Part shown: positions 9,347 through 26,019 of the stretch, in pieces | How the letters are laid out: each line of letters starts with the position of its first letter | Numbering within the stretch: position 1 is the first letter of the stretch | Source of the DNA: an uncultured Sphingomonadaceae bacterium | Lineage (GTDB): Bacteria > Pseudomonadota > Alphaproteobacteria > Sphingomonadales > Sphingomonadaceae | Assembly (NCBI GenBank): GCA_964247235.1 | Contig: CAXTTJ010000005.1 | Span: 9,065 to 73,064 of the forward strand | Direction: 5' to 3' | Length of the DNA: 64,000 nucleotides | Translations under genes and position numbers: made by a program | Notes under the pieces: model-generated | The model's database searches: none | What the model saw: the letters and a program-made list of their open reading frames with translations, nothing else | Told to the model about the DNA's origin: nothing

Positions 9347-10054
9347 TCAGAGAAGGAAGACGTCGCCTGCATGAATGACACGCACCGCGCCATCCGCCAA
9401 GCGCAACCGCAAGGCGCAGCCTTCGGTCAGGCCATCGAACAGGCCCTCGATCATGTCCCCATCGGGCAGACTGGCGACCAGCGCCGTCCCCGCCGGATGT
9501 GCACGATCAAGCCATGCCCTGCGAATTGCCGCCAGCCCGTCACCCCGCCATCGCATCAGCCAGCGCGCAAACAGATCGGCAACAGCGTCAAGAAACACGC
9601 GCGGTTCGGGCACTGCGGTCCCTAGCATGGCAAGGCTTGTTACCGGCCGGTTCAGCCCTTCGGGTATCATGACAAGGTTCACGCCAATGCCGATCACGAC
9701 CGCGTCACCGACCCGTTCCAGCAGAATTCCCGACATTTTTGCACCGCCGATCAGCAGATCATTCGGCCATTTGAGCTGGCACGGTGCGCCATCTGCCCAG
9801 ATCGTCACGGCGTCATGAACGGCAACTGCCGCGACCAGCGCCAGCGTTGCGGCATCAGGATCGCCCGGGTGCACACGTACAAGGCCGCTTGTGTGAAGAT
9901 TACCGAGCGGAGACTCCCATGTGCGACCCAATCGACCGCGCCCGGCGGTCTGGCGATCGGCCATCAGCCAGTCGCCCTCGGTCGCCCCTGCCGCTGCCAG
10001 ACGCAGCATGTCGGCATTGGTCGATGCGGTTTCAGCGACCCGGGTGATGCTCAG
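9347..10054 (-). CDS. birA: Biotin--[acetyl-CoA-carboxylase] ligase (no HTH domain); start uncertain, probably CTG
   Basis: STN, QTAGRGRLGRTW, KWPNDLL, KMSGIL, GIGVN. Confidence 0.9.
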   Translation of the reverse strand: MSITRVAETASTNADMLRLAAAGATEGDWLMADRQTAGRGRLGRTWESPLGNLHTSGLVRVHPGDPDAATLALVAAVAVHDAVTIWADGAPCQLKWPNDLLIGGAKMSGILLERVGDAVVIGIGVNLVMIPEGLNRPVTSLAMLGTAVPEPRVFLDAVADLFARWLMRWRGDGLAAIRRAWLDRAHPAGTALVASLPDGDMIEGLFDGLTEGCALRLRLADGAVRVIHAGDVFLL

Positions 10055-11475
10055 AAAAGCGCCCTCGCGGCGACGGCAGCTTCTGCTCCGATGGCGGGAA
10101 TCAGCAGATAGCCGAACAGGATAAACGCCGCACAAGCCGCAATCAGGCCATTTTCGAGCGAACTGCCGGCGACTGCGTAAGGCGTGGCCGGTTCATCAAA
10201 ATACATCGTCTTGATGATCTTGAGATAATAAAAGGCGCCGATGACAGATGCCGCGATGCCGATCGCCGCGAGCGGCAGCAGTCCCGCTGCGACAGCCGCG
10301 TCAAAAACCACGAACTTTGCCCAGAACCCGAACAGCGGCGGAATGCCGGCAAGACTGAACATGAAAATTGCGAGGGCTGCCGCCAGCCCTTTGCGGCTTT
10401 GTGACAGGCCCGACAGGCTGGCAATGCTTTCGACCGGCTGACCGGCGGCATCGCGCATCTGGAGCACACACAGGAAACTGCCAATTGTCATGACGACGTA
10501 AATCGCCAGATAGGTGAGCACGGCCGCCACGCCCTGTCTGCTCCCCGAGGCGAGACCGATCAGCGCAAAGCCGACATTGTTGATCGATGAGTAAGCGAGC
10601 AGCCGCTTGATATTCGTCTGCCCGATCGCGCCCGCCGCGCCAAGGACGATCGACGCCAGCGACGCGAAAATCACGATCTGTCGCCACTCCGGTGTCGCCG
10701 ATCCCATCGCTTCGACCGCAATGCGTGTCAGCATTGCCATTGCTGCGACCTTTTGCGCAGAGGCGAATAATGTCGTGACCGGCGTCGGCGCGCCTTCATA
10801 AACGTCGGGCGTCCACATGTGAAACGGCACGGCGGACACCTTGAAAGCGAGACCGGCAAAGACAAAAACCAGCCCGAACAATTGCCCGGTGGTCAGCCCC
10901 GCCGCAAACGCCCGCGCGATCCCGTCATACCCCGTCGTCCCGGTGAAGCCGTAAACAAGGCTCATCCCATATAATAATATCCCCGAGGCCAGCGCGCCAA
11001 GGACGAAATATTTCAACCCTGCTTCTGCAGAGCGGGCATCGCGGCGCATGAAGCTGGCGAGCACATAGGACGCCAGTGATTGCAATTCGAGACCGATATA
11101 CAGCGTGATCAGGTCAGTGGCCGACACCATCATGCCCGCCCCGACCGTGGCGAATAAAATCAGTATCGGATATTCGGCACGCAACCGGTCTCCCGTCGCA
11201 AAAAAACGCGGGGCAATGATGATCGAAACAGCAGTCGCGCCATAAATAAGCAGCTTGGCAAAGGCCGCAAAGGCATCCACGCGGTAAAGGCCGCCAGCGC
11301 CAGTCCCCTGCGCGTCGGTCATCACAAGCAATGCCGCCACGGCAATGAGCATGACCGACGTCCAGACGATCGCATGAAGCGCGTCATCGCCGCGCCATGC
11401 CGCAACCAGCATCAGGACGATCGCGCCGATCGACAAGACCAGCTCAGGCGCCGAAAGCATAAGAGACGCAGTCAT
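10051..11475 (-). CDS. nuoN: NADH-quinone oxidoreductase subunit N
   Basis: EAGLKYF, FKVSAVPFHMWTPDVYEG, KRLLAYSS. Confidence 0.97.
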   Translation of the reverse strand: MTASLMLSAPELVLSIGAIVLMLVAAWRGDDALHAIVWTSVMLIAVAALLVMTDAQGTGAGGLYRVDAFAAFAKLLIYGATAVSIIIAPRFFATGDRLRAEYPILILFATVGAGMMVSATDLITLYIGLELQSLASYVLASFMRRDARSAEAGLKYFVLGALASGILLYGMSLVYGFTGTTGYDGIARAFAAGLTTGQLFGLVFVFAGLAFKVSAVPFHMWTPDVYEGAPTPVTTLFASAQKVAAMAMLTRIAVEAMGSATPEWRQIVIFASLASIVLGAAGAIGQTNIKRLLAYSSINNVGFALIGLASGSRQGVAAVLTYLAIYVVMTIGSFLCVLQMRDAAGQPVESIASLSGLSQSRKGLAAALAIFMFSLAGIPPLFGFWAKFVVFDAAVAAGLLPLAAIGIAASVIGAFYYLKIIKTMYFDEPATPYAVAGSSLENGLIAACAAFILFGYLLIPAIGAEAAVAARALF

Positions 11476-12992
11476 TTGTGCGTCTCCGCATCGATGATGA
11501 TCCGTAAGGGCTTGCCGGACGCTGTCTGCGCATCACCACCCGGGTTTGCCCGCGCCATCCGCGCGACCAGCGCGCCGACGTCGCGGCGCATCGGTTTCAG
11601 GAAGCTTTCCGGATAAACTCCCATCCAGAAAACCACCGCGACAATTGGCACGAACATCGCGATTTCGCGTCTGTTAAGGTCGGGCATCGCCAGTGTATCG
11701 GCCCCCGCGGCCTTGCCGTAAATCATCCGCGCATACAGATAAAGCATGTAGGCCGCGCCAAGGATGATGCCCGTGGTGGCAACAAAGGCAACCCAGCTCG
11801 ACGCCTGATAGGCCCCGACCAGACTGAGGAACTCACCGACAAAACCGCTTGTACCAGGCAGGCCCACCGAAGCCATCGTGAATATCATGAAAAACATGGC
11901 ATAACCCGGCATCGTATCTGCAAGGCCGCCATAGCGATTGATCTCACGCGTATGCATGCGGTCGTAAACGACGCCGACGCACAGGAAGAGTGCACCCGAG
12001 ACCAGACCATGGCTAAGCATCACGAGCATCGCGCCCTCAAGCCCCTGCCGGTTGAACGCGAGCAGGCCGATCGTCACGAACGCCATGTGCGCGACACTCG
12101 AATAAGCAATCAGCCTTTTCATGTCAGACTGCACCAGCGCGATCAGCGACGCATAGACGACGGCGATCATCGACAGGCCCATGACGAGCCAGAACCAGTG
12201 CGCTGTCCCTTCTGGAAACATCGGGAGCAGGAAGCGGATGAAGCCATAGCCACCCATTTTGAGCAGCACACCCGCAAGGATCACCGACCCCGCCGTCGGT
12301 GCCTGAACATGCGCATCGGGTAACCAGGTATGCACAGGCCACATCGGCATCTTGACAGCGAATGATGCGAAAAAGGCGATCCACAGCCACGTCTGGGCCT
12401 TGGGCGCGAAGTCGAACTGCATCAGCGTCGGTATGTCGGTCGTCCCCGCCTGCTGCGCCATCCACAGCATCGCAATCAGCATCAGGACCGAGCCGAGCAG
12501 CGTGTACAGAAAAAATTTGTAGCTCGCATAAATCCGGTTCGCGCCGCCCCAGACACCGATGACAAGATACATCGGAATCAACCCCGCTTCGAAGAAAATA
12601 TAGAACAGGAACAGGTCCTGCGCCGCGAACACGCCGATCATCAGCGCTTCCATCAAGAGGAAGGCCGCCATGAATTCAGGAACCCGTCTGGTAATCGATT
12701 CCCACGAGGCTACGATACATATCGGCATCAGGAAAACACTGAGCATGATCAGCATCAGAGCAATGCCGTCAACACCAAGCGCCCAGCTGAACCGATCGAA
12801 CAGGTCGATCCGTTCGACAAACTGCCACTGTGCACCGCCCGGATCGAATTGGGTCCACAGGCTGATCCCGAGAACCAGATCGATTAACGTCGCCCCCAGC
12901 GCAACCCAGCGCGCGGTCGATGCTGACACGTAAAGACACAGCAGCCCCGCCAGCAACGGGATGGCGATCATGGTGGTCAGCACGCCGTTCAT
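11472..12992 (-). CDS. nuoM: NADH-quinone oxidoreductase subunit M
   Basis: [34 protein letters not shown] at 12992 overlaps the nuoL stop. Confidence 0.97.
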
Positions 12993-14959
12993 CGTGCCAT
13001 CACCCATGTCGCTGCCGCACTCAGGCCGACCAGCATGACCAGCGCATAGGTATAAAGATAGCCTGACTGCAATTTTACGGCAAAGCGGCTCCCCTGCGCA
13101 ACGATCGCCGCTGCGCCATTGGGGCCGAACCGGTCGATCACCCCCTCATCGCCGCCTTTCCAGAACAGGCGCCCGAACGCGAACGCCGGTTTGACAAGGA
13201 GCATGTCGTAAAGTTCGTCCCAATACCATTTGTTGCGCAGAAAATCGTAAAGCGGGTGGAATGTCGCGACGAAACGCTTGGAAATGCTCGTGTCACGCAT
13301 ATAGGCCCAATAGGCAATGCCGAGGCCGGTCATCATGACGATGGTCGCCGATAGTTTTACGAGTAACGGCACGCCGTGCATATGATGGGACAGTTCCTCG
13401 TCAAATGCGACGCTTCCCTGCCAGAACTCCGCTTCGAGGAAAGCGTGGTGGAATGCGAAACCTGCAAACACCGCGCCGATCGTGAGGAGTCCGAGCGGGA
13501 CGAGCATCGACATCGGGCTTTCATGCGGATGATATCCCGCTGTGCCGTCGCTACTGGGCGCTGGATGGCCGTGGGTGATATGATCGGACTGATCCCACCG
13601 CGGCTTGCCCCAAAAGGTCAGGAACATCAACCGCCACGAATAGAAACTGGTCAGCAACGCCGCAAACACGGCAACGAAAAATGCGATTCCGCCTTGTTCG
13701 CCGCCGCGCGCATAGGCCGCTTCGATGATGGCATCCTTCGAATAAAAACCGGCGAACCCGAACATTTCGATGATCCCGACGCCGGTAATCGCAAGCGTAC
13801 CTGCCAGCATCGCATAGAAAGTCAGCGGGATATGCGTCCGCAGGCCGCCATAATAGCGCATGTCCTGTTCATGGTGCATCGCATGGATGACGCTGCCCGC
13901 GCCAAGGAACAGCAGCGCCTTGAAAAACGCGTGCGTGAACAGATGGAACATCGCGCCACCAAAGGCGCCCACGCCCGCCGCCATGAACATGTAACCAAGC
14001 TGCGAACAGGTCGAATAGGCGATCACCCGCTTGATGTCAGTCTGCGTCGTACCGACAGTCGCGGCGAAAAACGCGGTCGCGGCACCGACATAGGTGACGA
14101 CATGCATCGCCGTTTCACTCGTCACGAACATCGGTGACAGGCGACAGACCATGAAGACGCCCGCAGTCACCATGGTGGCGGCATGGATCAGCGCAGAGAC
14201 GGGTGTCGGCCCCTCCATCGCGTCAGGAAGCCAGGTGTGCAGCCCGAGCTGCGCCGACTTGCCCATCGCGCCCACAAACAGCAGCAGACAGAGCAAAGTC
14301 ATCACATCGACGCGGTGCCCGAGAAAGCCGATCGTCATCCCTGCCATACCCGGTGCCGCCGCAAGGATCGCGGGGATAGACACAGTGCCGAACACAAGAA
14401 ATGTCCCGAAAATCCCGAGCGAAAAACCGAAATCACCGACACGGTTGACGACAAATGCCTTGATCGCCGCCGCGTTGGCGGAGGGCTTGTGATACCAGAA
14501 ACCGATGAGGAGATAGGACGCAAGCCCGACCCCTTCCCAGCCAAAGAACATCTGGACGAGATTGTCCGCAGTGACGAGCATCAGCATCGCGAAGGTGAAC
14601 AGCGAGAGATACGCAAAGAAGCGCGGCTGGCTCGGGTCTTCGGCCATATAGCCCCAGCTGTAGAGGTGGACGAGCGCCGACACCGACGTCACCACAACCA
14701 GCATGACCGCGGTCAGCGTGTCGACACGCAACGACCAGTCGACATGCATTGTCCCCGAATGAATCCAGTCGAGCACCGGCACGACCTGCGCTACAGAGTG
14801 CCCGCTGAGAAAGCCGATAAAGATTGGCCACGCCAGCGCGCAGCTGCCGAACAGCGCGCCGGTCGTCACGACCTTTGCCGCGGTGTAACCGATAATGCGC
14901 CCGCCAAGGCCAGCAATGATCGCTGCCACCAACGGCAAAAAGACGAGTGCCTGTATCAT
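12989..14959 (-). CDS. nuoL: NADH-quinone oxidoreductase subunit L
   Basis: [42 protein letters not shown]. Confidence 0.97.
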
Positions 14960-14968
14960 GCGCGCACC

Positions 14969-15033
14969 CTTCGCGGCTTCGCGGCTTCGCCTGAACCATT
15001 GCCATCCTCACGCGAAGCCGCGAAGACGCGAAG
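14969..15033. repeat. Palindromic (CGCGAAGC)n element 1, nuoK-nuoL junction
   Basis: 22-bp inverted arms at 14969-14990 and 15012-15033, one mismatch. Confidence 0.9.
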
Positions 15034-15056
15034 AAGAATACTGGCTGCGGCGCGCA

Positions 15057-15362
15057 TCATCCGCGCATCCTGTTCACATCGTCGACCGAAATCGTCGCAC
15101 GACCACGGAAATAAATGACCAATATGGCAAGGCCAATCGCCGCTTCGCCCGCCGCGACAGTCAGCACGAACATGGCAAACACCTGCCCCACCAGATCCCC
15201 CAGAAACGCGCTGAACGCGACGAGATTGATATTCACGCTCAGCAGGATGAGCTCGATCGACATCAGGATGACGATGAGATTCTTGCGGTTTATGAAAATG
15301 CCGAGCACGCCAAGCACGAACAGGATCGCACTGACCGCGATAAAATGGTGAAGGCCGATCAC
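15057..15362 (-). CDS. nuoK: NADH-quinone oxidoreductase subunit K
   Basis: [27 protein letters not shown]. Confidence 0.97.
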
Positions 15363-15973
15363 AATTCCACCCCTGCACCGACCGGCTGGTCCCTGACGAT
15401 CCGCACGGCATCCTGCGGACGGCGGCGGACCTGACGGTCGATATTCTGCGCTTTCAGGCCGCTGCGCTCGCGGTGCGTAAGGACAATCGCGCCGATCATC
15501 GCCACGAGCAGCACAAGCCCCGCCGCCTCAAACGCATAAAGATAGCGTGTATAGAGCAGCAGGCCGATGGCTTCGGTATTGGGCACGCCATTCGCAATGG
15601 GCGATGCCCGCTCCGCCAGCACGACCGGGCCAGCCGTCCATGCGAAAGTCGCAATCAGCGTTTCGGACACCAGAGCCGCCGCGATCACCAGCCCGAACGG
15701 CAGATATTTCGTAAATCCCTGCCGCATCTCCGAAAAATCGATGTCGAGCATCATGACGACGAACAGGAACAGCACCGCCACCGCACCAACATAAACAATG
15801 ACGAGCAGCATCGCGATGAATTCCGCGCCGACCAGCACCATCAGCCCCGCCGCGTTGAAAAAGGCGAGGATGAGCCACAGCACGCTATGCACCGGATTGC
15901 GCGCGGTGATCGTCATCAGCGCGGACATCACGACGATGCCGGCGAACAGATAAAAGGCAAAGACCTGGATCAC
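15359..15973 (-). CDS. nuoJ: NADH-quinone oxidoreductase subunit J
   Basis: [34 protein letters not shown]. Confidence 0.97.
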
Positions 15974-16023
15974 CCGACTACTCCAAATTGGCGCCGCAGG
16001 CCAATAAGCTTTCTTCCCTCTTC

Positions 16024-16086
16024 CTTCGCGGCTTCGCGGCTTTGCGTGAGTCCAGTTGATTCACGCGAAGCCGCGAAGCCGCGAAG
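16024..16086. repeat. Palindromic element 2, nuoI-nuoJ junction
   Basis: 29-bp inverted arms at 16024-16052 and 16058-16086, 5-nt loop, two mismatches. Confidence 0.9.
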
Positions 16087-16153
16087 AAGAAGCGAAAAAT
16101 ATGAAGCCACTGGCGCGGCAATTGTGGTAGACATCCGAATCACGCCCGCGCCC

Positions 16154-16636
16154 CTACCGATACGGCGCATCGGCGGCAAGGTTCGCGGCGATCGCGCGTT
16201 CCCAGCGGTCGCCGTTATCAAGCAGTTTGGACTTGTCGTAGATCAATTCCTCGCGCGTTTCGGTTGCATATTCGAAATTCGGCCCCTCGACGATGGCATC
16301 GACCGGACACGCCTCTGCACACAGCCCGCAGAAGATGCACTTGGTCATGTCGATGTCGTAACGCGTCGTGCGGCGGCTCCCGTCATCGCGCGGCTCGGCC
16401 TCAATCGTGATCGCCTGCGCCGGACACACCGCCTCGCACAGCTTGCACGCAATGCACCGCTCCTCACCATTGGGATAACGGCGCAGCGCATGCTCGCCCC
16501 GAAACCGCGGCGAGAGCGGGTTCTTCTCATACGGATAGTTGATCGTCGCCTTGGGCTTAAAGAAATATTTCAAGGTCAGCCAATGGGCCTTGAGGAATTC
16601 CCATAGGGTAAAGGTTTTGATGAGGTGGGGGATCAT
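16154..16636 (-). CDS. nuoI: NADH-quinone oxidoreductase subunit I
   Basis: Two 4Fe-4S motifs: [12 protein letters not shown] and [12 protein letters not shown]. Confidence 0.98.
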
Positions 16637-17679
16637 GCACTATACCTCGTCAGCATCAGATACCCGCTCACCAGCACCACCCATACCAGCGAAAGCGGCA
16701 GGAAAATCTTCCAGCCCAGCCGCATGAGCTGGTCATAGCGATAGCGCGGGACGGTGGCCTTCACCCAGCTGAACATGAAGAAGAAGATCAAAATCTTCAG
16801 GAACAGCCAGAAAATGCCGGGGATCACATAAAGCGGTGCCCAGTCAACTGGCGGCAGATACCCGCCCCAGAACAGGATCGCGTTCAATGCGCACATCAGG
16901 ATGACGTTGGCGTACTCACCCAGCCAGAACAGCGCGAACGACATAGACGAATATTCGGTCTGATACCCGGCGACGAGCTCGCTTTCGGCCTCGGTCAGGT
17001 CGAACGGCGCGCGCGCGGTTTCGGCGAGGCTCGAAATGAAGAACACCACCGCCATCGGCAGGAACAGCGGATTGAAGCCGAAGCCGTTGGTGATCCACAA
17101 ATGGCTGCGTTGCGCCTCGACAATGGCGGTCATGTTGAACGACCCGACCCACAAAACGACCGAAATCAGCACAAATCCGATGCTGACTTCGTAAGAAACC
17201 ATCTGCGCCGCGGCGCGCAGGGCTGAGTAAAACGGATATTTCGAGTTCGACGACCATCCCGCCATCATCACCCCGTAAACGCCAAGCGACGACGCCGCGA
17301 GAATATAGAGCAGCCCGACATTGATATCTGACAGCACCATCCCCGGCCCGAACGGCACCACCGCCCACACGATCAGCGCGACCGTGAAGGTGATGATCGG
17401 CGCGAGGAGGAACAGGCCCTTGTTCGCACTCGACGGGATGATCGTTTCCTGAAGAAAAACCTTCAGCCCATCGGCGAAGGACTGCAGCAAGCCGAACGGC
17501 CCGACGACATTGGGCCCCTTGCGCAACGCCATCGCCGCCCAGATTTTCCGGTCGGCGTAGATCAGCATCGCGACCGCGAGCATGACCGGCAGCGCGATGA
17601 GGAGAATCATCGCAATGTTCCACGCGAGCCAGCCTGTCGAATACCCCAAATGCAATTGCGCCCATTTCATCCAGGTCAT
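16633..17679 (-). CDS. nuoH: NADH-quinone oxidoreductase subunit H
   Basis: [43 protein letters not shown]. Confidence 0.97.
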
Positions 17680-17715
17680 CGCAGCGTCTCCCGACCGTAG
17701 GCCAGAAAGAGTGTT

Positions 17716-17795
17716 TCACGCGAAGCCGCGAAGCCGCGAAGGCTCTTGCGGGAAGTTTGCGACAGCAACCTTCGCGGCTTTGCGGCTTCGCGTGA
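17716..17795. repeat. Palindromic element 3, nuoG-nuoH junction
   Basis: 27-bp inverted arms at 17716-17742 and 17769-17795; arm order is reversed relative to elements 1 and 2. Confidence 0.9.
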
Positions 17796-17836
17796 GTCAA
17801 ACTTTCCTGCGCGCGAGCGCGCCATTTCCCGTAGCG

Positions 17837-19852
17837 TCATTCCGCTGCCTCCAGCATGTCGCTCCCGTGCAAAATTTCCGCCGAACATAGCTGCATCGTC
17901 GGGCTCGCGCGGCAGATGGCGTTGGTCAGGTAGAAATCCTTGATCGGATAACCCGCCATTTCGGCCCTTGGTGATTTCGGCAGTTTCGGCGGGTTCCAGC
18001 CATAATCGGCCAATCCCTCGACGCCAAGCGCCGGAACCTCGGCAAACATCGCGGCACGCAGGCCATCATAGCTATCGAACGGCAGCGTGTGGCCGAGCAC
18101 CTGCGACAGTGCCCGCAGGATCGTCCAGTCCTCACGCGCGTCTCCCGGCGGGAAGACGGCCCGCTCGCCGCGCTGCACACGCCCTTCAAGGTTCACATAA
18201 GTCCCCGGCTTTTCGGCGTAGCTCGCGCCCGGCAGCACGACATCCGCCGCTGCTGCGCCCCCCCGAACAGACGCGTCGCCATGATGGCCGATATAGACTT
18301 TGAACGAAGACTTGAACGCCGACCAGTCGACTTCGTCAGCGCCAAGTGCGAACACCAATCTGGTTCCCCGAAGCGCCGCGATCCCGCCCGGCTGCGCATA
18401 GCCGAGCATCAGCCCGCCCATCCGCGCGGCTGCCATATGCAGGACGTTGAACCCGTTCCAGCCGTCACGCACCAGCTTGTATTTGTCTGCTATGGCAAGC
18501 GCGGCGCCATGGACACCATCAACCGCCAGAGCACCGCCGCCAACGATGATCGCGGGCCGTTCGGCCACCGCCAAAGCATCCGACAGCACCTTGGGCAAGC
18601 GCGACAAAATGCCCAGCTCGCTTCCAAGCCAATGCGCCTTATAAGTGAGGTCAACCTCCGGCCCGATGGCAAAAACCTTCCCCCCACGCTTGATCGCCTT
18701 GCGCACGCGCGTGTTCACCAGGGGCGCTTCCCAGCGCAAATTCGTGCCGATCAGAAGAACCATATCGGCACGCTCGATGCCCGACATTGTGCTGTTGAAA
18801 TTCACTGCACTCAACGAAGAAACATCGTATTTCAAGCCATTTTGCCGCCCTTCAAACAAATCGCTACCCATCAAACGAACCAGATGCTTTGCCGCATACA
18901 TGGTTTCGCAGTCGACCAGATCGCCCGCAACCGCAGCGACGCTTGACCCTGCATCAACAGCCTGGATCGCCGCGAACGCTTCGTCCCATGTTGCCGCTTC
19001 CAGCTTGCCATTCCGCCGCACATACGGGCGATCGAGACGCTTCCTTACAAGGCCATCGACGGCATGGCGCGTCTTGTCCGACGCCCATTCCTCGTTTACG
19101 TCTTCGTTGATCCGCGGCAGCGCGCGCAGCACCTGCCGTCCGCGTGAATCGAGCCTGATGTTCGTCCCCACCGCGTCCATAACATCAATGGCGGGGGTCT
19201 TTTTCAACTCCCACGGCCGCGCCTCGAACGCATAGGGTTTGGACGTCAACGCACCTACCGGACACAGATCGACGACATTGCCCGACAATTCGGACTGGAT
19301 CGCATGTTCCAGATAGGTGGTGATCTGCATCGATTCACCGCGCCCGATTGCGCCGATATCCTCGACGCCCGCGACTTCCTCCGCAAAGCGGATGCAGCGC
19401 GTGCACTGGATGCACCGCGTCATCACCGTCTTGACGATCGGCCCCATATATTTCTCGGTCACGGCGCGCTTGTTTTCGTCATAGCGGCTGATGCCCTTGC
19501 CATAGGCGACCGACTGGTCCTGCAAATCGCATTCGCCGCCCTGATCGCAAATCGGGCAATCGAGCGGGTGGTTGATGAGCAGAAACTCCATCACCCCCTC
19601 GCGCGCCTTCTTCACCATCGCGCTGTCGGTGCGGATCGCCTGTCCCTCGGCGGCCGGAAGCGCGCACGACGCCTGCGGCTTGGGTGGCCCCGGCGCGACC
19701 TCGACCAGGCACATGCGGCAATTGCCCGCAATACTCAGGCGCTCATGATAGCAGAAACGCGGGATTTCCTTGCCCGCAAGTTCGCAGGCCTGAAGCACAG
19801 TAGCGCCAGCGGGAACTTCGATTTCGACGCCGTCGACAGTGAGTTTAGGCAT
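17837..19852 (-). CDS. nuoG: NADH-quinone oxidoreductase subunit G
   Basis: FCYHERLSIAGNCRMC, HPLDCPICDQGGEC, RCIQCTRC. Confidence 0.98.
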   Translation of the reverse strand: MPKLTVDGVEIEVPAGATVLQACELAGKEIPRFCYHERLSIAGNCRMCLVEVAPGPPKPQASCALPAAEGQAIRTDSAMVKKAREGVMEFLLINHPLDCPICDQGGECDLQDQSVAYGKGISRYDENKRAVTEKYMGPIVKTVMTRCIQCTRCIRFAEEVAGVEDIGAIGRGESMQITTYLEHAIQSELSGNVVDLCPVGALTSKPYAFEARPWELKKTPAIDVMDAVGTNIRLDSRGRQVLRALPRINEDVNEEWASDKTRHAVDGLVRKRLDRPYVRRNGKLEAATWDEAFAAIQAVDAGSSVAAVAGDLVDCETMYAAKHLVRLMGSDLFEGRQNGLKYDVSSLSAVNFNSTMSGIERADMVLLIGTNLRWEAPLVNTRVRKAIKRGGKVFAIGPEVDLTYKAHWLGSELGILSRLPKVLSDALAVAERPAIIVGGGALAVDGVHGAALAIADKYKLVRDGWNGFNVLHMAAARMGGLMLGYAQPGGIAALRGTRLVFALGADEVDWSAFKSSFKVYIGHHGDASVRGGAAAADVVLPGASYAEKPGTYVNLEGRVQRGERAVFPPGDAREDWTILRALSQVLGHTLPFDSYDGLRAAMFAEVPALGVEGLADYGWNPPKLPKSPRAEMAGYPIKDFYLTNAICRASPTMQLCSAEILHGSDMLEAAE

Positions 19853-19992
19853 TATTCCACCGCCTCCAGCAACTCACCACCATCACGCTCGTTGATCCGC
19901 CGCCCGATCTCAGGCCGGAAGTGCTTGATCAGCCCCTGGGTCGGCCACGTCGCGGCGTCGCCCCGCGCACAAATGGCATGACCTTCGGCTTG
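19852..19992 (-). pseudogene. Decayed duplicate of the nuoF 3' end
   Basis: Translates to [46 protein letters not shown], versus Nuo[46 protein letters not shown]. Ends in a TAATG overlap with the nuoG start. Confidence 0.9.
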
Positions 19993-20027
19993 CGGTCTAC
20001 AAATTGTTATATGAAGCATCGGCCCGC

Positions 20028-20255
20028 TCAGTGCGCTGTATCGGCGAGGCCGAGCCGCTTTTCAATTTGGTCAACGCGAACTTTCAAGTCCGAGATGTCA
20101 CTCTGCATCCCATAAACAGAGGTCATCAAGCCGCGCATATGTTCCTCGATCGAAGCCAGTCGGATGCCTTGCGACAATTGCTCGCGTTTGACACCACCCA
20201 AATCACCTTGAATTGATTTCAGTATTTCCAGCATCAAGTCGTCGCGGTCGGTCAT
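20028..20255 (-). CDS. 75-aa coiled-coil hypothetical protein (cargo A)
   Basis: Heptad pattern; similar to the ORF at 22434-22661. Confidence 0.8.
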
Positions 20256-20263
20256 TTTAATTC

Positions 20264-21559
20264 CTATTCAGCGGCTTGTAGCACAGGTTCGGCACGTTCG
20301 TTAATCCGCCGCTCTAATTCGGGCCGAAAATGCCTGATCAGCCCCTGGATCGGCCACGCCGCCGCGTCGCCCAGCGCGCAGATGGTGTGGCCTTCTACCT
20401 GTTTGGTCACTTCCTGCAGCAGGTCGATTTCGCCGATCTCCGCATCGCCGGTGCGCAGGCGTTCCATCATCCGCCACATCCATCCGGTGCCTTCGCGGCA
20501 CGGCGTGCACTGGCCACATGACTCATGCTTGTAGAAATAACTCAACCGCGAAATCGCGCGGACAATATCGGTCGATTTGTCCATTACGATAACCGCTGCG
20601 GTTCCCAGCCCTGATCCGACTGCCTTCAACCCGTCAAAGTCCATCGGGGCGTCCATGATCTGCGCGGCAGGGACGAGCGGCACGGACGATCCGCCGGGAA
20701 TGACCGCGAGCAGATTGTCCCACCCGCCGCGAATGCCGCCGCAATGCGTGTCGATGAGCTCACGAAACGGGATGCCCATCGCGTCCTCGACCACGCAAGG
20801 CTTGTTCACATGGCCGCTGATCTGGAACAGCTTGGTCCCTTCATTCTTCGGATTGCCGATCCCCGCAAACCATGGCGCACCGCGTCGCAGAATCGTCGGG
20901 ACGACGGCAATGCTCTCGACATTGTTGACTGTCGTCGGGCAACCATAAAGCCCCGCGCCCGCCGGGAACGGCGGTTTCAAACGCGGCTGGCCTTTCTTGC
21001 CTTCAAGACTTTCAAGCATCGCGGTTTCTTCGCCGCAGATATACGCGCCCGCGCCCCGGTGGACGAACACATCGAAATCATAGCCCGATTTGCAGGCGTT
21101 CTTGCCGATCAGTCCCTTGGCATAAGCCTCCGCCACGGCCGCGAACAGCACGTCGGTCTCACGGATATATTCGCCGCGGATGTAGATGTACGCGGCGCGC
21201 GCGCGCATGGCGTATCCGGCGATCAGCGCGCCTTCGATCAGCTTGTGCGGATCATGGCGGATGATCTCACGGTCCTTGCAGCTGCCGGGTTCGGATTCAT
21301 CGGCATTGATGACGAGGAAGTTCGGACGCCCCTCGGTCGGCGCCTTGGGCATGAAGCTCCACTTCATCCCCGTCGGGAAGCCAGCCCCGCCACGCCCGCG
21401 CAGGCCGCTCGCCTTGACCACATCGATGATTGCGTCCTGTCCGACAGCCATCAACGCCCTGGTCTTGTCCCAGTCACCGCGCTTCATCGCAGACGCGAGG
21501 TTCCACGGCTGAAAACCATAAAGGTTCGTGAAGATGCGGTCCTTGTCTTGCAAACTCAT
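20264..21559 (-). CDS. nuoF: NADH-quinone oxidoreductase subunit F
   Basis: [45 protein letters not shown]. Confidence 0.98.
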
Positions 21560-21588
21560 GCGCCGCTCCCAGCCCGAAGGGCAAGAAA

Positions 21589-21727
21589 TGACTCACGCGA
21601 AGCCGCGAAGTCGCGAAGAGCAAAGCACTCTCGGCAGCCTCTGCGTGAACCCGAGTCGATTTCATCCAGAGGGCGCAGAGGATGCCGACAAAATAATCTT
21701 CGCGGCTTCGCGCCTTCGCGTGAGTCA
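21589..21727. repeat. Palindromic element 4 with nested second inverted repeat, nuoE-nuoF junction
   Basis: 31-bp outer arms at 21589-21619 and 21697-21727; inner arms TCGGCAGCCTCTGCG / CGCAGAGGATGCCGA. Confidence 0.9.
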
Positions 21728-21761
21728 AATTTACTTGCGCGCACGTGCGCGAGCATTGGCG

Positions 21762-22430
21762 TCATGCCCAGTCCTTCCGGTAGTCATGGTTCTTGCCGAC
21801 CATTGCGATCAACGTCGTCGGCCGCCCTTCGGGGCAGCTGACCTGCCGCGCGATCTGCGAACCCGGCGTCACGGCACGCCCCTCGGCAAGCGCACTCAGG
21901 ATGGCTTCCATGCTGTCATAAGTCAGGTCTTCGAAATTATCGTCGTTGATCTGGACCATCGGCGCGTTCGCGCAGGCACCCAGACATTCGACTTCGGTGA
22001 GGGTGAACAAGCCGTCGGCGGTCGTCCGCCCCTTCGCCATCCCCCGGTTCGCGCAGGCGGCGAGGACATCGTCCGACCCGCGCAACATGCACGGCGTCGT
22101 TCCGCACACCTGCACATGATAGCGCCCGACCGGGGCCATATTGTACATCGTGTAAAAACTGACGACTTCATAGGCACGCATATAGGGCATGCCGAGTTGG
22201 GCCGCGACAAACTCGATGACGGGCACGGGCAGCCACCCTTGCGCGTTCGTTTCCGCCCCCACCTGTCGCTGGGCAAGGTCGAGCAGCGGCATCACCGCCG
22301 ATTGCTGCCGCCCCGCCGGATAGCGCGCGATGATCTCGGCGGCCTTGGTGGCATTCGCCTTGGTCCAGGCGAATTTGCCCCACCGCGCGCGGGTCTCCGC
22401 TTCCTCGGGGATGTGGGTGGTGTCAGCCAC
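21762..22430 (-). CDS. nuoE: NADH-quinone oxidoreductase subunit E
   Basis: [27 protein letters not shown] start. Confidence 0.97.
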
Positions 22431-22433
22431 AGA

Positions 22434-22661
22434 TTATCGCGCCTCCGACAATTCAAGCCGACGCTCGACACGACCGAGGCGTTCGTCGAACTTGTCCATG
22501 CGATTGTTCAAACCGGATAGGCTGATCAACATCCCGCCCATATGCTCGTCAAGTGCGGAAAGCCGTGATTTCACGACCTGCATGTCGTCTTCTATATTGG
22601 TCAACCGGTCATCGATGCGACGTAAGCGTTCGAGGATCAGATTTTCAACATTGTCAGTCAT
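22434..22661 (-). CDS. 75-aa coiled-coil hypothetical protein (cargo B)
   Basis: [13 protein letters not shown]...RLGRVERRLEL; paralogous to cargo A. Confidence 0.8.
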   Translation of the reverse strand: MTDNVENLILERLRRIDDRLTNIEDDMQVVKSRLSALDEHMGGMLISLSGLNNRMDKFDERLGRVERRLELSEAR

Positions 22662-22930
22662 GCCGAAGCTCCTTTCTGAACAGCACTATAGCCAAATTCA
22701 TGGTCACGCGCGCGAGTTTCGGCTTCGTCGGGCATGTGGGGGGTGTCGCCATTTGCGATTTCCCTCGAACGCCTTTCGAGAAACGCCTTCCAAAAGAGGG
22801 CTGCAAACCCGAGAAAATTCGTGAGTAGAATTTCGTCTAACACGTCCAAACCACGCGCAAACTTGAGCACTAGCAAAACTAATGACGCGCCGACGCTCAT
22901 CTTTTGGATGGTATCGAGCACCCCAATCAC
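22658..22930 (-). CDS. Chimeric small ORF: about 60-aa membrane peptide fused to a nuoE 5' relic
   Basis: Two hydrophobic segments followed by [18 protein letters not shown] overlap with the nuoD stop and ATGA overlap with cargo B. Confidence 0.55.
22688..22752 (-). pseudogene. Decayed duplicate of the nuoE 5' end with a 1-nt deletion
   Basis: Restoring one T gives [16 protein letters not shown] versus Nuo[17 protein letters not shown] (13/16 identical). Confidence 0.85.
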
Positions 22931-24177
22931 CGGTCACACTCCCCGAACACGATGTCCATCGCGCCGAGCACGGCGGTCGTGTCCGCGAGCATGTGGCCCT
23001 TCATCATGAAGTCCATCGCCTGCAAATGGCTGAACGCGGTCGGGCGGATTTTGCAGCGATAGGGTTTGTTCGTCCCGTCGCTGACCAGATAGACGCCGAA
23101 TTCGCCCTTGGGGCTTTCGGTCGCGACATAGACTTCGCCGGCGGGGACGTGGAAGCCCTCGGTATAGAGTTTGAAATGGTGGATCAGCGCTTCCATCGAT
23201 CGCTTCATTTCGGCGCGTTTGGGCGGCACCACCTTGCGGTCGTCGCTGGCGATCGGCCCCTCGGGCATTTGCGCCAGGCACTGTTTCATGATGCGCGCCG
23301 ATTGACGCACTTCCTCGACGCGGACCATGAAGCGGTCATAGCAATCGCCGCCACCTCTACCAATAACATTGCCCACCGGCACGTCGAAATCCATCCGGGC
23401 GTACACATCATAAGGCTGCGACTTGCGCAGATCCCACGCGATGCCCGAACCACGGATCATCGGCCCCGAAAAGCCCCAGCGCACCGCATCATCCTTGGTG
23501 ACCACACCGATGTCGACATTGCGCTGCTTGAAAATGCGGTTGTCGGCGACGAGGCTGATCGCATCCTCGAACAGTTGCGGCAGGCGCGTGTCGAGCCAGT
23601 CGGCAATGTCGGTGAGCAGCTTCAGCGGCACATCCTGATGCACGCCGCCGGGCCGGAAATAGGCGCAATGCATTCGCGCACCCGATGCGCGCTCGAAAAA
23701 GTTCATGCAGTCTTCGCGGATTTCGAACATCCACAAATTCGGCGTCATCGCACCGACGTCCATCACATGCGACCCGAGGTTGAGCATGTGATTGGAAATG
23801 CGCGTCAATTCGGCGAAAAACACTCGCAGATATTGCGCGCGCAACGGGACGTCGAGATCAAGCAGCTTCTCGATCGCGAGCACATATGAGTGCTCCATGC
23901 ACAGCGGCGAACAATAATCGAGGCGGTCGAAATAAGGCAGCGCCTGAAGATAGGTCTTATGCTCGATCAGCTTTTCGGTGCCGCGGTGGAGCAGCCCGAC
24001 ATGCGGGTCGCAGCGCTCGACGATTTCGCCGTCGAGTTCCATGACAAGCCGGAGAACGCCATGCGCGGCCGGGTGCTGCGGCCCGAAATTGATCGTGTAA
24101 TTCTGAATTTCGACATCGCCGGGGGTGGGCTTTTCGCCGTCGGTCTCCGTGCGAAATTGTTCGAGCGTTTCAGCCAC
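22927..24177 (-). CDS. nuoD: NADH-quinone oxidoreductase subunit D
   Basis: [47 protein letters not shown] at 24177. Confidence 0.97.
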
Positions 24178-24217
24178 AATAAATCTCCGCCGCGCTTGCG
24201 GCATTCAAAACCTTCAT

Positions 24218-24316
24218 CTTCGCGCCTTCGTGCCGTCGTGTGAAATCACGTCCTGTCTTCTCAACCTTGGCGAAGAAGGAGAAAAATGCCTCACACGAAA
24301 GCACGAAGGCACGAAG
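24218..24316. repeat. Palindromic element 5 (CACGAAGG variant), nuoC-nuoD junction
   Basis: 26-bp inverted arms at 24218-24243 and 24291-24316, three mismatches. Confidence 0.85.
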
Positions 24317-24333
24317 GTGGGAAGAAATGGCAG

Positions 24334-25071
24334 TCATGCACCTTCCTTCGTCTTGCGCACACGCTTCGGTTTGGCGGCTTCGTTCGCGGCAGGCCCTGCG
24401 CCGGTGTCCGACGGTTTTTCGGTCACTTTTGGCGTCGCTGGCGGAGCAACCGGCGGAGCGGGCGCCACATATTTCTCGTCACCGGGAAGGATGTAGTCCG
24501 CACCTTCCCAAGGGCTCATGAAATCGAATGTGCGGAAATCCTGTGCCAACCGCACCGGTTCGTAGACGACACGCTTGGCGTCTTCGGAATAGCGCAGTTC
24601 GACATAGCCGGTCAGCGGGAAATCCTTGCGCTGAGGGTGCCCGCGAAAACCGTAATCAGTAAGGATACGGCGCAAATCGGGGTTACCGCTAAACAGCACG
24701 CCATACATGTCGAACACTTCGCGTTCGAGCCACCCCGCGACCGGCCACAGCCCCGTGACCGACGGCACGGCCTGAACCTCATCGGTTATTAGCTTTACGC
24801 GGATACGATGGTTTCTTGTCAGCGACAGCAGATGATAAACCACCTCGAACCGTTCAGGCCGGTCGGGATAATCGACGCCGGCAATTTCCATGAGCTGCTG
24901 ATAGCCGCAGTCATCGCGCAGCGCGGTCATCACCGCGACGATGGCCTCGCGTTTCACTGTCAGCGTCACTTCACCGACCAGATCGACCGCGTCGAGCACA
25001 GCCTTGCCACAGGCCTTCTTCGCAGCGGCAATCACACCCTTGTTCGGTGCATAGGCGGGCGCACAATGCAT
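24334..25071 (-). CDS. nuoC: NADH-quinone oxidoreductase subunit C
   Basis: [28 protein letters not shown]; Pro/Ala/Lys-rich tail. TGATG overlap with nuoB. Confidence 0.96.
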
Positions 25072-25607
25072 CAGCGTTCGATGGTTCCGCTGCGACGGAT
25101 TTTCCGCTGCAGCTGCATGATGCCGTACAACAACGCCTCTGCCGTCGGCGGACAGCCCGGCACGTAAATATCGACGGGCACGATGCGATCGCATCCGCGC
25201 ACCACCGAATAGCTGTAATGATAATAGCCGCCGCCGTTCGCGCAGCTGCCCATCGATATCACATATTTCGGGTCCGACATCTGGTCGTACACCTTGCGCA
25301 GCGCGGGCGCCATCTTGTTGCACAGCGTCCCCGCCACGATCATCACGTCTGACTGGCGCGGAGACGCACGTGGTGCGACACCGAAGCGTTCGAGATCGTA
25401 GCGCGGCATGTTGACATGGATCATCTCGACCGCACAGCAGGCGAGGCCAAAGGTCATCCACCACAGCGATCCGGTGCGCGCCCAGTGAAACAGGTCCTCG
25501 GTCGACGCCACAAGAAACCCCTTGTCGGTCAGCTCGCCGTTGAGATCGTTGAAAAACCCGTCATTTTGCACCGACGTGCCGGGGGCGCGGGCAAGTTCTA
25601 CTCCCAT
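25071..25607 (-). CDS. nuoB: NADH-quinone oxidoreductase subunit B
   Basis: [37 protein letters not shown]. Confidence 0.97.
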
Positions 25608-25975
25608 TCGAGCGCTCCCTTTTTCCACGCATAGGCATAGCCGAGGATGAGTTCGAGCAGGAAGATGATCATCGCGCCCCAGCCAGCAATACCGATTCCG
25701 TGTAAGGACACCGCCCACGGAAACAGGAACGCCGCCTCCAGATCGAAAATGATGAACAGGATTGCCACGAGGTAGAAGCGCACGTCAAACTGGCTGCGGC
25801 TATCCTCGAATGCCGGAAAGCCGCATTCATATTCGCTGAGCTTTTCAGGCGAGGGTTTATACGCGCCCGTGAAACGCTGTGCGATCATCGGCAAAAACAC
25901 GAACGCGCTCGAAATGAACAGCGCAATCGCCAGAAACAGCAGGATTGGCAGATAACCGGCGGCGGACGACGCCAT
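25598..25975 (-). CDS. nuoA: NADH-quinone oxidoreductase subunit A
   Basis: [27 protein letters not shown]. Start is 25975 or 25981. Confidence 0.96.
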
Positions 25976-26019
25976 AATCATAACTCCCTGAGGCGGAAAA
26001 TACCGCCCCGTATGATTGC

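Follow-up and report, generated by a model that had tools for sequence, protein, structure and literature searches.

The nuo operon and its interrupted junctions

We investigated a window of 64,000 nucleotides (nt) from an uncultured Sphingomonadaceae bacterium (contig C5:9065-73064; genome 2.46 Mb, 61% GC), in which the nuo operon is interrupted at seven of its gene junctions (C/D, D/E, E/F, F/G, G/H, I/J and K/L) by inserts of 97-496 nt each. Five of these inserts are copies of a palindromic hairpin element and two are cassettes that include a small gene, and all seven are crossed by short open reading frames (ORFs) that link the neighbouring nuo genes. The names borne by homologues of its proteins put the bacterium in or near Sphingomonas. 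The operon is laid out as follows.

10051..25981, minus strand: nuoA-N operon
25598..25981, minus strand: nuoA
25071..25607, minus strand: nuoB
24334..25071, minus strand: nuoC
22927..24177, minus strand: nuoD
21762..22430, minus strand: nuoE
20264..21559, minus strand: nuoF
17837..19852, minus strand: nuoG
16633..17679, minus strand: nuoH
16154..16636, minus strand: nuoI
15359..15973, minus strand: nuoJ
15057..15362, minus strand: nuoK
12989..14959, minus strand: nuoL
11472..12992, minus strand: nuoM
10051..11460, minus strand: nuoN

It had been proposed that the native nuo junctions overlap, and this is borne out at A/B (10-nt overlap), B/C (TGATG), H/I (ATGA), J/K (GTGA) and L/M (ATGA), but not at M/N, where the genes lie at +11 nt. 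The I/J junction is natively non-overlapping. The empty sites of sister species are plain ATGA or TGATG overlaps, and elsewhere in the order, in other families, the native nuo spacers are short.

A chain of reading frames across seven junctions

We identified bridging chains by three-frame read-outs and a minimum-gap chain search, and found an unbroken minus-strand ORF chain across all seven interrupted junctions, in agreement with the original prediction that each insert is stop-free in one minus-strand frame linking its neighbours; every coordinate that had been proposed for the bridges was reproduced. The largest untranslated gap between nuoA and nuoN is 11 nt, and the links in the seven chains measure -4, -8, -1, +3, +8 or +10 nt, negative values being overlaps. 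The components of the chains, with lengths in amino acids (aa), are as follows.

14956..15060, minus strand: K/L relay ORF, 34 aa; ATG on the nuoK TGA and TGA on the nuoL ATG; links -4, -4
15970..16143, minus strand: I/J relay ORF, 57 aa; GTG at 16143 to TGA at 15970; links +10, -4
17676..17840, minus strand: G/H relay ORF, 54 aa; ATGA at both ends; links -4, -4
19852..20019, minus strand: F/G relay ORF, 55 aa; ends TAATG on nuoG; F/G links +8, +8, -1
20028..20255, minus strand: F/G 75-aa coiled-coil gene; 8-nt gap on each side; paralogue of the D/E 75-aa gene
21556..21765, minus strand: E/F relay ORF, 69 aa; ATGA at both ends; links -4, -4
22434..22661, minus strand: D/E 75-aa coiled-coil gene; stop 3 nt before the nuoE GTG; D/E links -4, -4, +3
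22658..22930, minus strand: D/E 90-aa ORF; overlaps the nuoD stop as GTGA and the 75-aa gene as ATGA
24170..24337, minus strand: C/D relay ORF, 55 aa; ATGA on the nuoC stop; links -4, -8

The I/J relay ORF starts at a duplicated GTGAT, 10 nt past the nuoI stop, and ends as GTGA on the nuoJ start, and the end of the C/D relay ORF overlaps the start of nuoD (24177) by 8 nt (GTGGCTGA). All seven inserts had been regarded as one kind of bridge, which is accurate for the five hairpins but not for the remaining two, the F/G bridge being a displaced nuoF 3' end and the D/E bridge an ORF fused to a relic nuoE 5' end.

Structure of the hairpin element

The inserts at K/L, I/J, G/H and E/F, together with a diverged copy at C/D, form a single inverted-repeat family. 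The arms consist of tandem CGCGAAGC octamers terminating in GTGAGTCA, with a length of 26-44 nt and a complementarity of 83-94%.

14969..15033: K/L hairpin element; arms 14969-14994 and 15008-15033 of CGCGAAGC 8-mers; -61.4 kcal/mol, z -5.4
16011..16099: I/J hairpin element; arms 16011-16052 and 16058-16099; -73.8 kcal/mol, z -8.6
17705..17806: G/H hairpin element; arms 17705-17742 and 17769-17806; -78.1 kcal/mol, z -6.4
21589..21727: E/F hairpin element; arms 21589-21619 and 21697-21727; -79.6 kcal/mol, z -6.7
24215..24319: C/D hairpin element, diverged copy; arms 24215-24243 and 24291-24319; -64.7 kcal/mol, z -7.0

The RNA folds of the five elements thus span -61 to -80 kcal/mol (z -5.4 to -8.6), and in the fold of the K/L insert the nuoL AUG is sequestered, its partner in the outer stem being the start of the insert. 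The G/H and E/F inserts are homologous end to end, right up to the ATGA. The element is low-copy, with approximately 10-13 copies in this genome and 0-7 pairs in sister species. Searches of Rfam gave no match at or above a gathering score: the only hits, to generic models of miRNA-precursor hairpins, reached 25-43 bits where 79-200 would be required. A scan for intrinsic terminators on the mRNA strand found no long arm-to-arm hairpin followed by a U-run and detected only short sub-stems with weak T-tracts, inside the E/F, C/D and I/J inserts; its total of 26 is near shuffle level (18.3 +/- 4.7).

At filled sites the overlap is present on both sides of the insert, within short direct repeats of 4-6 nt (ATGAT, ATGAC, GCATGA and GTGAT; TGATGG at pnt). 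Such repeats are needed in any case: an intact upstream gene requires a stop and an intact downstream gene a start, so that the overlap stands on both sides, with the relic ATG and relic TGA coming free. The occurrence of ATGA at both ends therefore follows from the splitting of an overlap, as the empty sites in sister species indicate, and is not in itself a sign of selection.

After the split, the upstream stop carries a duplicate start codon together with the native Shine-Dalgarno (SD) site, and the displaced downstream start carries a duplicate TGA; the hairpin relay ORFs begin at the relic native start codon and end on the relic TGA. The relic start retains its native SD within the upstream gene (AGGA, GGAGG, GAAGGA or AAGGAAGG), as at K/L, where AGGA lies 7 nt upstream of the ATG. 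The displaced gene starts have GGAG, GGGAG or GAAGG 6-8 nt upstream, within the insert end. At G/H, for example, the native nuoH SD (GGAGG) now stands ahead of the relay ATG, and GGGAG in the insert end stands ahead of the displaced nuoH ATG.

A bridge of this kind needs a junction-to-junction distance of 3n+2, and the distances between duplicated junctions (101, 170, 161 and 206 nt in the window, 197 nt at pntAB/pntB) are all 2 mod 3. The arms carry TGA in one of three frames only, and the K/L, G/H and E/F inserts are open in two of three frames on both strands. As each arm has a stop in one frame only, a single open frame is weak evidence, and it is the phase that is informative. Selection for openness of the arms themselves is not supported, as the antisense frames are equally open.

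The bridge ORFs might be supposed to encode functional micro-proteins, such as accessory peptides of complex I, since their native SD-plus-start sites make translation very likely and the adjoining 75-aa genes are real and conserved. However, their codon usage is non-coding, with a log-likelihood ratio (LLR) of -0.21 to +0.01 per codon and a GC content at third codon positions (GC3) of 0.49-0.65, compared to an LLR of +0.23 to +0.43 per codon and a GC3 of 0.73-0.82 for the nuo genes (K/L relay: LLR -0.01 per codon, GC3 0.59; E/F relay: LLR -0.21 per codon). The peptides, which are read-outs of palindrome arms (FAASRE / SREAAKPRR), have no Pfam or NCBIfam match, other loci read the same arms in different frames, and the inserts of sister species at the same junction are unrelated in sequence. 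We regard functional micro-proteins as very improbable, codon usage and the inconsistent reading frames ruling them out.

Tests against chance in this genome

Long open frames are common in DNA of 61% GC, and 25-40% of shuffled spacers pass our permissive chain criterion, raising the question of chance. In length-preserving dinucleotide shuffles of each insert, the probability of a chain was 0.26-0.74 per junction (product 0.002), and with random phase (0-2 nt removed) it fell to 0.08-0.51 (product 7e-5), with 2.0 of the seven junctions expected to be chained, compared to the seven seen. The original estimate that seven of seven is unlikely by chance is therefore upheld. Reverse complementing the inserts in place, which keeps both composition and palindromes, left one chain of seven in the window and 16 of 41 in the set of same-genus operons defined below. 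Simulated frameshifts of the K/L, G/H and E/F inserts abolished the chain in 94-100% of cases.

We called genes throughout the genome with a purpose-built caller based on codon usage and derived from it the co-directional spacers. Chains were found in 123 of the 469 other co-directional spacers of 60-500 nt (26%; 113, or 24%, expected). This baseline matches the shuffle expectation, which shows a calibrated null and marks nuo as an outlier. Chance, which is also opposed by the counts in relatives, is ruled out by the shuffles, the in-place reverse complements and the genome-wide baseline, and we hold it to be barely conceivable.

Bridging in related nuo operons

We compared a genus set, consisting of eight same-genus operons and the window, with a second set from 40 other Sphingomonadaceae genera, giving approximately 49 operons. 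Consistent with the original prediction, the inserts of relatives are not often frame-broken. All 41 inserted junctions of the genus set are chained (11.6 expected), through 97 links of which 57 are at -4, 14 at -8 and 10 at -1, with a maximum of +10. In the other genera 136 of 147 inserted junctions are chained (57 expected), with 190 links of exactly -4, so that 247 of the 427 links in all chains of both sets are exactly -4. Hairpin-dominated inserts, defined by a length of 61-260 nt and a minimum free energy (MFE) per nt below -0.47, are chained in 35 of 37 cases over both sets, 25 of them as single ORFs overlapping both neighbours; the other genera alone account for 22 of 24 (9.8 expected).

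These data bear on the possibility that the bridges are a mechanical by-product, produced by a stop-poor element of fixed length that targets and duplicates stop-start overlaps, with no selection on translation. The short direct repeats that include the overlap, the restriction of stops to one frame per arm, the homology of the G/H and E/F copies up to the ATGA, and the many low-copy element copies at 4-nt overlaps, which suggest a target preference, would all agree with such an origin. However, insert lengths vary widely (97, 100, 130, 133, 157, 166 and 202 nt, and others) and phase is kept in all. Relatives carry palindromic repeats of at least four unrelated families, with read-outs such as IPAKAGIS/IPAFAGMT, PAQAGAQ/PACAGVT, HPGLDPGS/TPDQVRGD and PLAGEGRERG, and these follow the same phase rule at varying lengths, as do ordinary genes. 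The element is not restricted to overlaps, as copies also lie between convergent genes, and the length of the target duplication is inconsistent. We therefore rejected target-site duplication as the whole explanation, as it explains the ATGA at either end while leaving the constant phase over variable lengths and unrelated families unexplained, and consider a purely mechanical origin improbable.

A further argument against a mechanical by-product comes from a pair of orthologous inserts in two species (L052 and L066), which differ by several indels with a net difference of 4 nt, compensated by a new internal ATGA overlap that rescues the chain.

Species differ in their inserts, among which are many orphan small genes. 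We found neither GxxExxY nor other nuclease cassettes among 85 inserted nuo-junction ORFs (85-330 aa, from 48 relatives), which encode retropepsin-like, SnoaL-like, cupin or orphan proteins.

We additionally observed that the D/E, F/G and H/I junctions are hypervariable slots across Sphingomonadaceae (L031-L038, L070-L109). At D/E the ORFs are small (74-118 aa), unrelated to one another and in many cases membrane-protein-like. At F/G there are from one to several, 190-260 aa long, which have signal-peptide-like N-termini and match no Pfam family, and at H/I there are orphan ORFs of approximately 165 aa. Also present are seven genes of retropepsin-like and five of SnoaL-like type. Separately, NuoC (24334-25071) has a proline/lysine-rich C-terminal tail extending approximately 45 aa past the Complex1_30kDa domain, which is common to same-genus relatives.

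The F/G and D/E cassettes

The 55-aa F/G bridge has a Pfam match to NADH_4Fe-4S (E=1.6e-5), and a direct repeat joins positions 19884-19986 to 20293-20395 (82% identity over 103 nt). This bridge is the old 3' end of nuoF, now diverged, which retains the ancestral TAATG junction to nuoG and was displaced when the cassette brought in the 75-aa gene and a replacement nuoF end. The 90-aa ORF at D/E is a small membrane-type ORF fused to a relic of the nuoE 5' end, in which ATGGC-GACACC corresponds to GTGGCTGACACC in nuoE. Both bridges were coding in their recent ancestry, and part of their openness is owed to that.

The 75-aa coiled-coil protein is one of a Sphingomonas family that is conserved and does not vary in length (86 homologues), and on one Sphingomonas contig (L067:3001-3228) a homologue lies between nuoD and nuoE with overlaps of -4 and -1. 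Its gene could be a respiratory accessory specific to the lineage, or one that moves between junctions. Members of the family are often mislabelled 'archaellum component FlaC'; homologues are also found at E/F in a sister species (L037) and after a class I methyltransferase gene in Methylococcaceae.

Copies of the element outside nuo

We identified further copies of the element elsewhere in the genome. At pntAB/pntB (contig C3:39661-39861) it splits a TGATG overlap, with TGATGG repeated on both sides, and is crossed by a 66-aa relay ORF that runs from GTGA/TGATG to TGATG. At murB/ddl (contig C22:9254-9955) its arms enclose a GxxExxY protein gene (TIGR04256, E=3e-38), and the unit is read as a single ORF with ATGA/GTGA overlaps with both neighbours. 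The same cassette occupies the same murB/ddl junction in a sister species (L063:1587-2087). This gene, which is not a known transposase, is the only one found enclosed by the arms, and the cassette may be the complete form of the gene-less hairpins.

A copy also lies in frame in a loop of truB (contig C13:1208-1275; ...RVFASWRETADLTRSREAAKE... / ...LRVFASWRETADLTRSREAAKEDVTLTAHVSKGTYIRSL...). The same loop in seven sister species (L111-L117) carries other in-frame inserts of variable length, several with palindrome-like read-outs, and appears to be a hotspot similar to those of the RPE palindromes considered below. One element copy in a relative (L050) lies inside an ORF of 1003 aa. Six of the eight co-directional copies in relatives form relay ORFs with -4/-4 links, and five to six copies sit between convergent genes; on account of the latter we rejected the idea that the element is specialised only for translated sites. 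The arms read as FAASRE / SREAAKPRR in nuo and truB but as HAKPRSRE / FAASRLRV at pnt and mur, and since different frames are used at different loci, the peptide is not what is conserved. The element is thus confined neither to nuo nor to translated sites, and it is bridged where it splits a coupled junction.

The genome also contains two homologues of Y1_Tnp (RAYT/IS200-like; C12:27247-27573 and C2:127685-128011), each in a 230-aa open frame. No flanking CGCGAAGC element or other arm-like sequence, and no perfect palindrome of at least 10 bp, was found within 900 nt of either locus.

Possible roles of the bridges

The comparisons above confirm that bridging is far beyond chance and is maintained across species, apparently by selection, which seems to act on phase and on the absence of stops. 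We think it likely that the relay mini-ORFs hand ribosomes across the inserts and so restore coupling. In this reading the native nuo cistrons are translationally coupled in a chain, through overlaps of the form ATGA, GTGA or TGATG, and foreign DNA has lodged at seven of these, as five hairpin copies and as two cassettes, each with a 75-aa gene and a duplicated nuo end. To judge from the comparative data, inserts would persist only with both relics in phase (3n+2) and a stop-free frame between them. Ribosomes finishing the upstream gene would re-initiate at the relic start of the relay ORF, and the translating ribosome would melt the hairpin of -60 to -80 kcal/mol and terminate on the start of the next gene, which has an SD (GGAG, GGGAG or GAAGG) 6-8 nt upstream. 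The pairing of the nuoL AUG in the K/L stem fits a need for ribosomes to be carried across the hairpin. Downstream expression would be restored by termination-reinitiation, by RNA unfolding or by both, and the relay peptide itself would be without function. Both models of coupling have been reviewed (PMC12548453).

Several observations weigh against a relay of ribosomes. Each displaced gene has its own SD and may initiate independently of the relay ORF. The chain criterion is permissive, random sequence passing in 25-40% of cases; simulated frameshifts of the C/D, D/E and I/J inserts are mostly rescued by alternative starts; and openness is largely intrinsic to the element, antisense and sense frames being open to about the same degree and the copies that lie between convergent genes only somewhat less so. 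Eleven of the 147 inserted junctions in other genera are unchained, mostly at I/J and at multi-kb F/G inserts, and the junctions of related genomes are not fully independent events. Furthermore, some strong hairpins between co-directional genes elsewhere in the genome are unbridged, among them one in a 136-nt spacer between two genes of approximately 1400 aa, which by size alone we take to be rpoB and rpoC. The bridging rule applies to natively overlapping junctions.

A rather unlikely alternative is that translation of the inserts is selected, but as a safeguard against RNase III cutting, Rho loading or a change in segmental mRNA stability, and not for coupling or stoichiometry. The stems of 25-40 bp are nearly perfect, a duplex type that RNase III cuts, the polarity exerted by Rho on untranslated RNA is established (PMC12548453), and the SD 6-8 nt before every displaced gene means that re-initiation may be unneeded. 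However, the links are mostly exactly -4 at both ends, as termination-reinitiation requires, which is more than protection needs, and the nuoL AUG lies within the K/L stem. Highly structured, GC-balanced RNA is moreover a poor loading site for Rho, which counts against Rho protection. As regards the target of selection, the sequence data would fit subunit stoichiometry, ribosome delivery and protection from RNase III or Rho equally well.

Returning to the relay of ribosomes, we propose tentatively, and with more doubt than confidence, that the Sphingomonadaceae nuo operon is both a filter and a safe harbour. Selection for an uninterrupted ribosome relay would be so strong that any DNA, hairpin-cassette remnant and orphan gene alike, could lodge at its stop-start overlaps on the sole condition of forming phased, coupled ORFs. 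The hairpins with 8-mer arms might then be gene-less remnants of a widespread GxxExxY nuclease-like cassette family, pre-adapted to translation by few stops on both strands and by an exit SD.

The comparisons also show the Sphingomonadaceae nuo operon as a hotspot, in which orphan genes would gain expression by joining the chain. Our data extend a relay-ORF logic put forward for mycobacterial MIRUs in 1997 to unrelated palindromic hairpins in Alphaproteobacteria, with statistics from approximately 49 operons. They also suggest a rule for annotation: short 'hypothetical proteins' that read as palindrome arms and overlap both operon neighbours are relay ORFs, not protein-coding genes. Finally, sister species in which a given junction either has or lacks a hairpin of -60 to -80 kcal/mol constitute natural test material, which can separate re-initiation from RNA-unfolding models and measure the tolerance to polarity of an essential respiratory operon.

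Comparison with known systems

Our literature searches found no specific earlier account from sphingomonads or nuo operons. The bridges resemble translational coupling at stop-start overlaps (reviewed in PMC12548453) in their -4/-1 spacings, in the SD within the upstream ORF and in the melting of an inhibitory structure around the downstream start, but here the coupling partner would be a non-functional ORF from selfish DNA that relays between two real genes. Extra reading frames likewise occur between alphaproteobacterial nuo genes at E/F, F/G, G/H and I/J. These unidentified reading frames (URFs) were reportedly described in the Paracoccus denitrificans nqo cluster by Xu, Matsuno-Yagi and Yagi in 1993 and in the Rhodobacter capsulatus nuo cluster by Dupuis et al. 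in 1995-98. They were presented as unknown ORFs, and to our knowledge neither their palindromic nature nor a role in coupling has been analysed.

As in REP/BIME repeats and the Chunjie MITE, small palindromic repeats are here tolerated within transcription units. REPs are usually 3' elements that are not translated, and owe their mobility to RAYT transposases. The element differs from REPs and REPINs mobilised by RAYTs in that it is low-copy and neither Y1_Tnp gene is flanked by its arms, and it shares with MITEs terminal inverted repeats, a small size, several copies and no transposase. The neutrality of Chunjie is said to have been described by Chen et al. in 2008 at the level of operon structure, not by way of a relay ORF. 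Chunjie is listed in PMC10969869 as an insertion that left a Geobacter operon undisrupted (Chen et al. 2008).

The precedent for translated palindromes is the Rickettsia palindromic elements (RPEs), which, as outlined in a later source, are selfish alphaproteobacterial palindromes that survive in frame and stop-free within translated sequence (Ogata et al. 2000, via PMC10969869). A minority of our copies, those in truB and in the 1003-aa ORF, are similarly in-frame palindromes within a protein gene. In contrast to RPEs, which join host proteins and encode a conserved peptide, the element mostly forms separate mini-cistrons and its frame is not constant.

The closest parallel is with mycobacterial interspersed repetitive units (MIRUs), which, as summarised in a later review, insert at start codons as mobile repeats within operons, with an internal ORF coupled at -4 nt to the flanking gene and minimal impact on expression (Supply et al. 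1997, Mol Microbiol 26:991, via PMC12548453). The present element similarly lies between co-oriented operon genes, in its five nuo copies and at pntAB/pntB and murB/ddl, and its ORFs overlap both flanking genes at K/L, G/H and E/F (-4/-4) and C/D (-4/-8), with +10/-4 links at I/J. MIRUs are direct, often tandem units of 40-100 bp in actinobacteria. The elements described here, in contrast, are single inverted-repeat hairpins of 97-202 nt in an alphaproteobacterium, a distinction drawn by architecture and host, and at these junctions the rule extends to ordinary small genes and to several hairpin families that are unrelated. The relay principle was thus already known, having been proposed for mycobacterial MIRUs in 1997 according to the summary cited above, and the element works like a MIRU while occurring in a different phylum and not belonging to the MIRU family.

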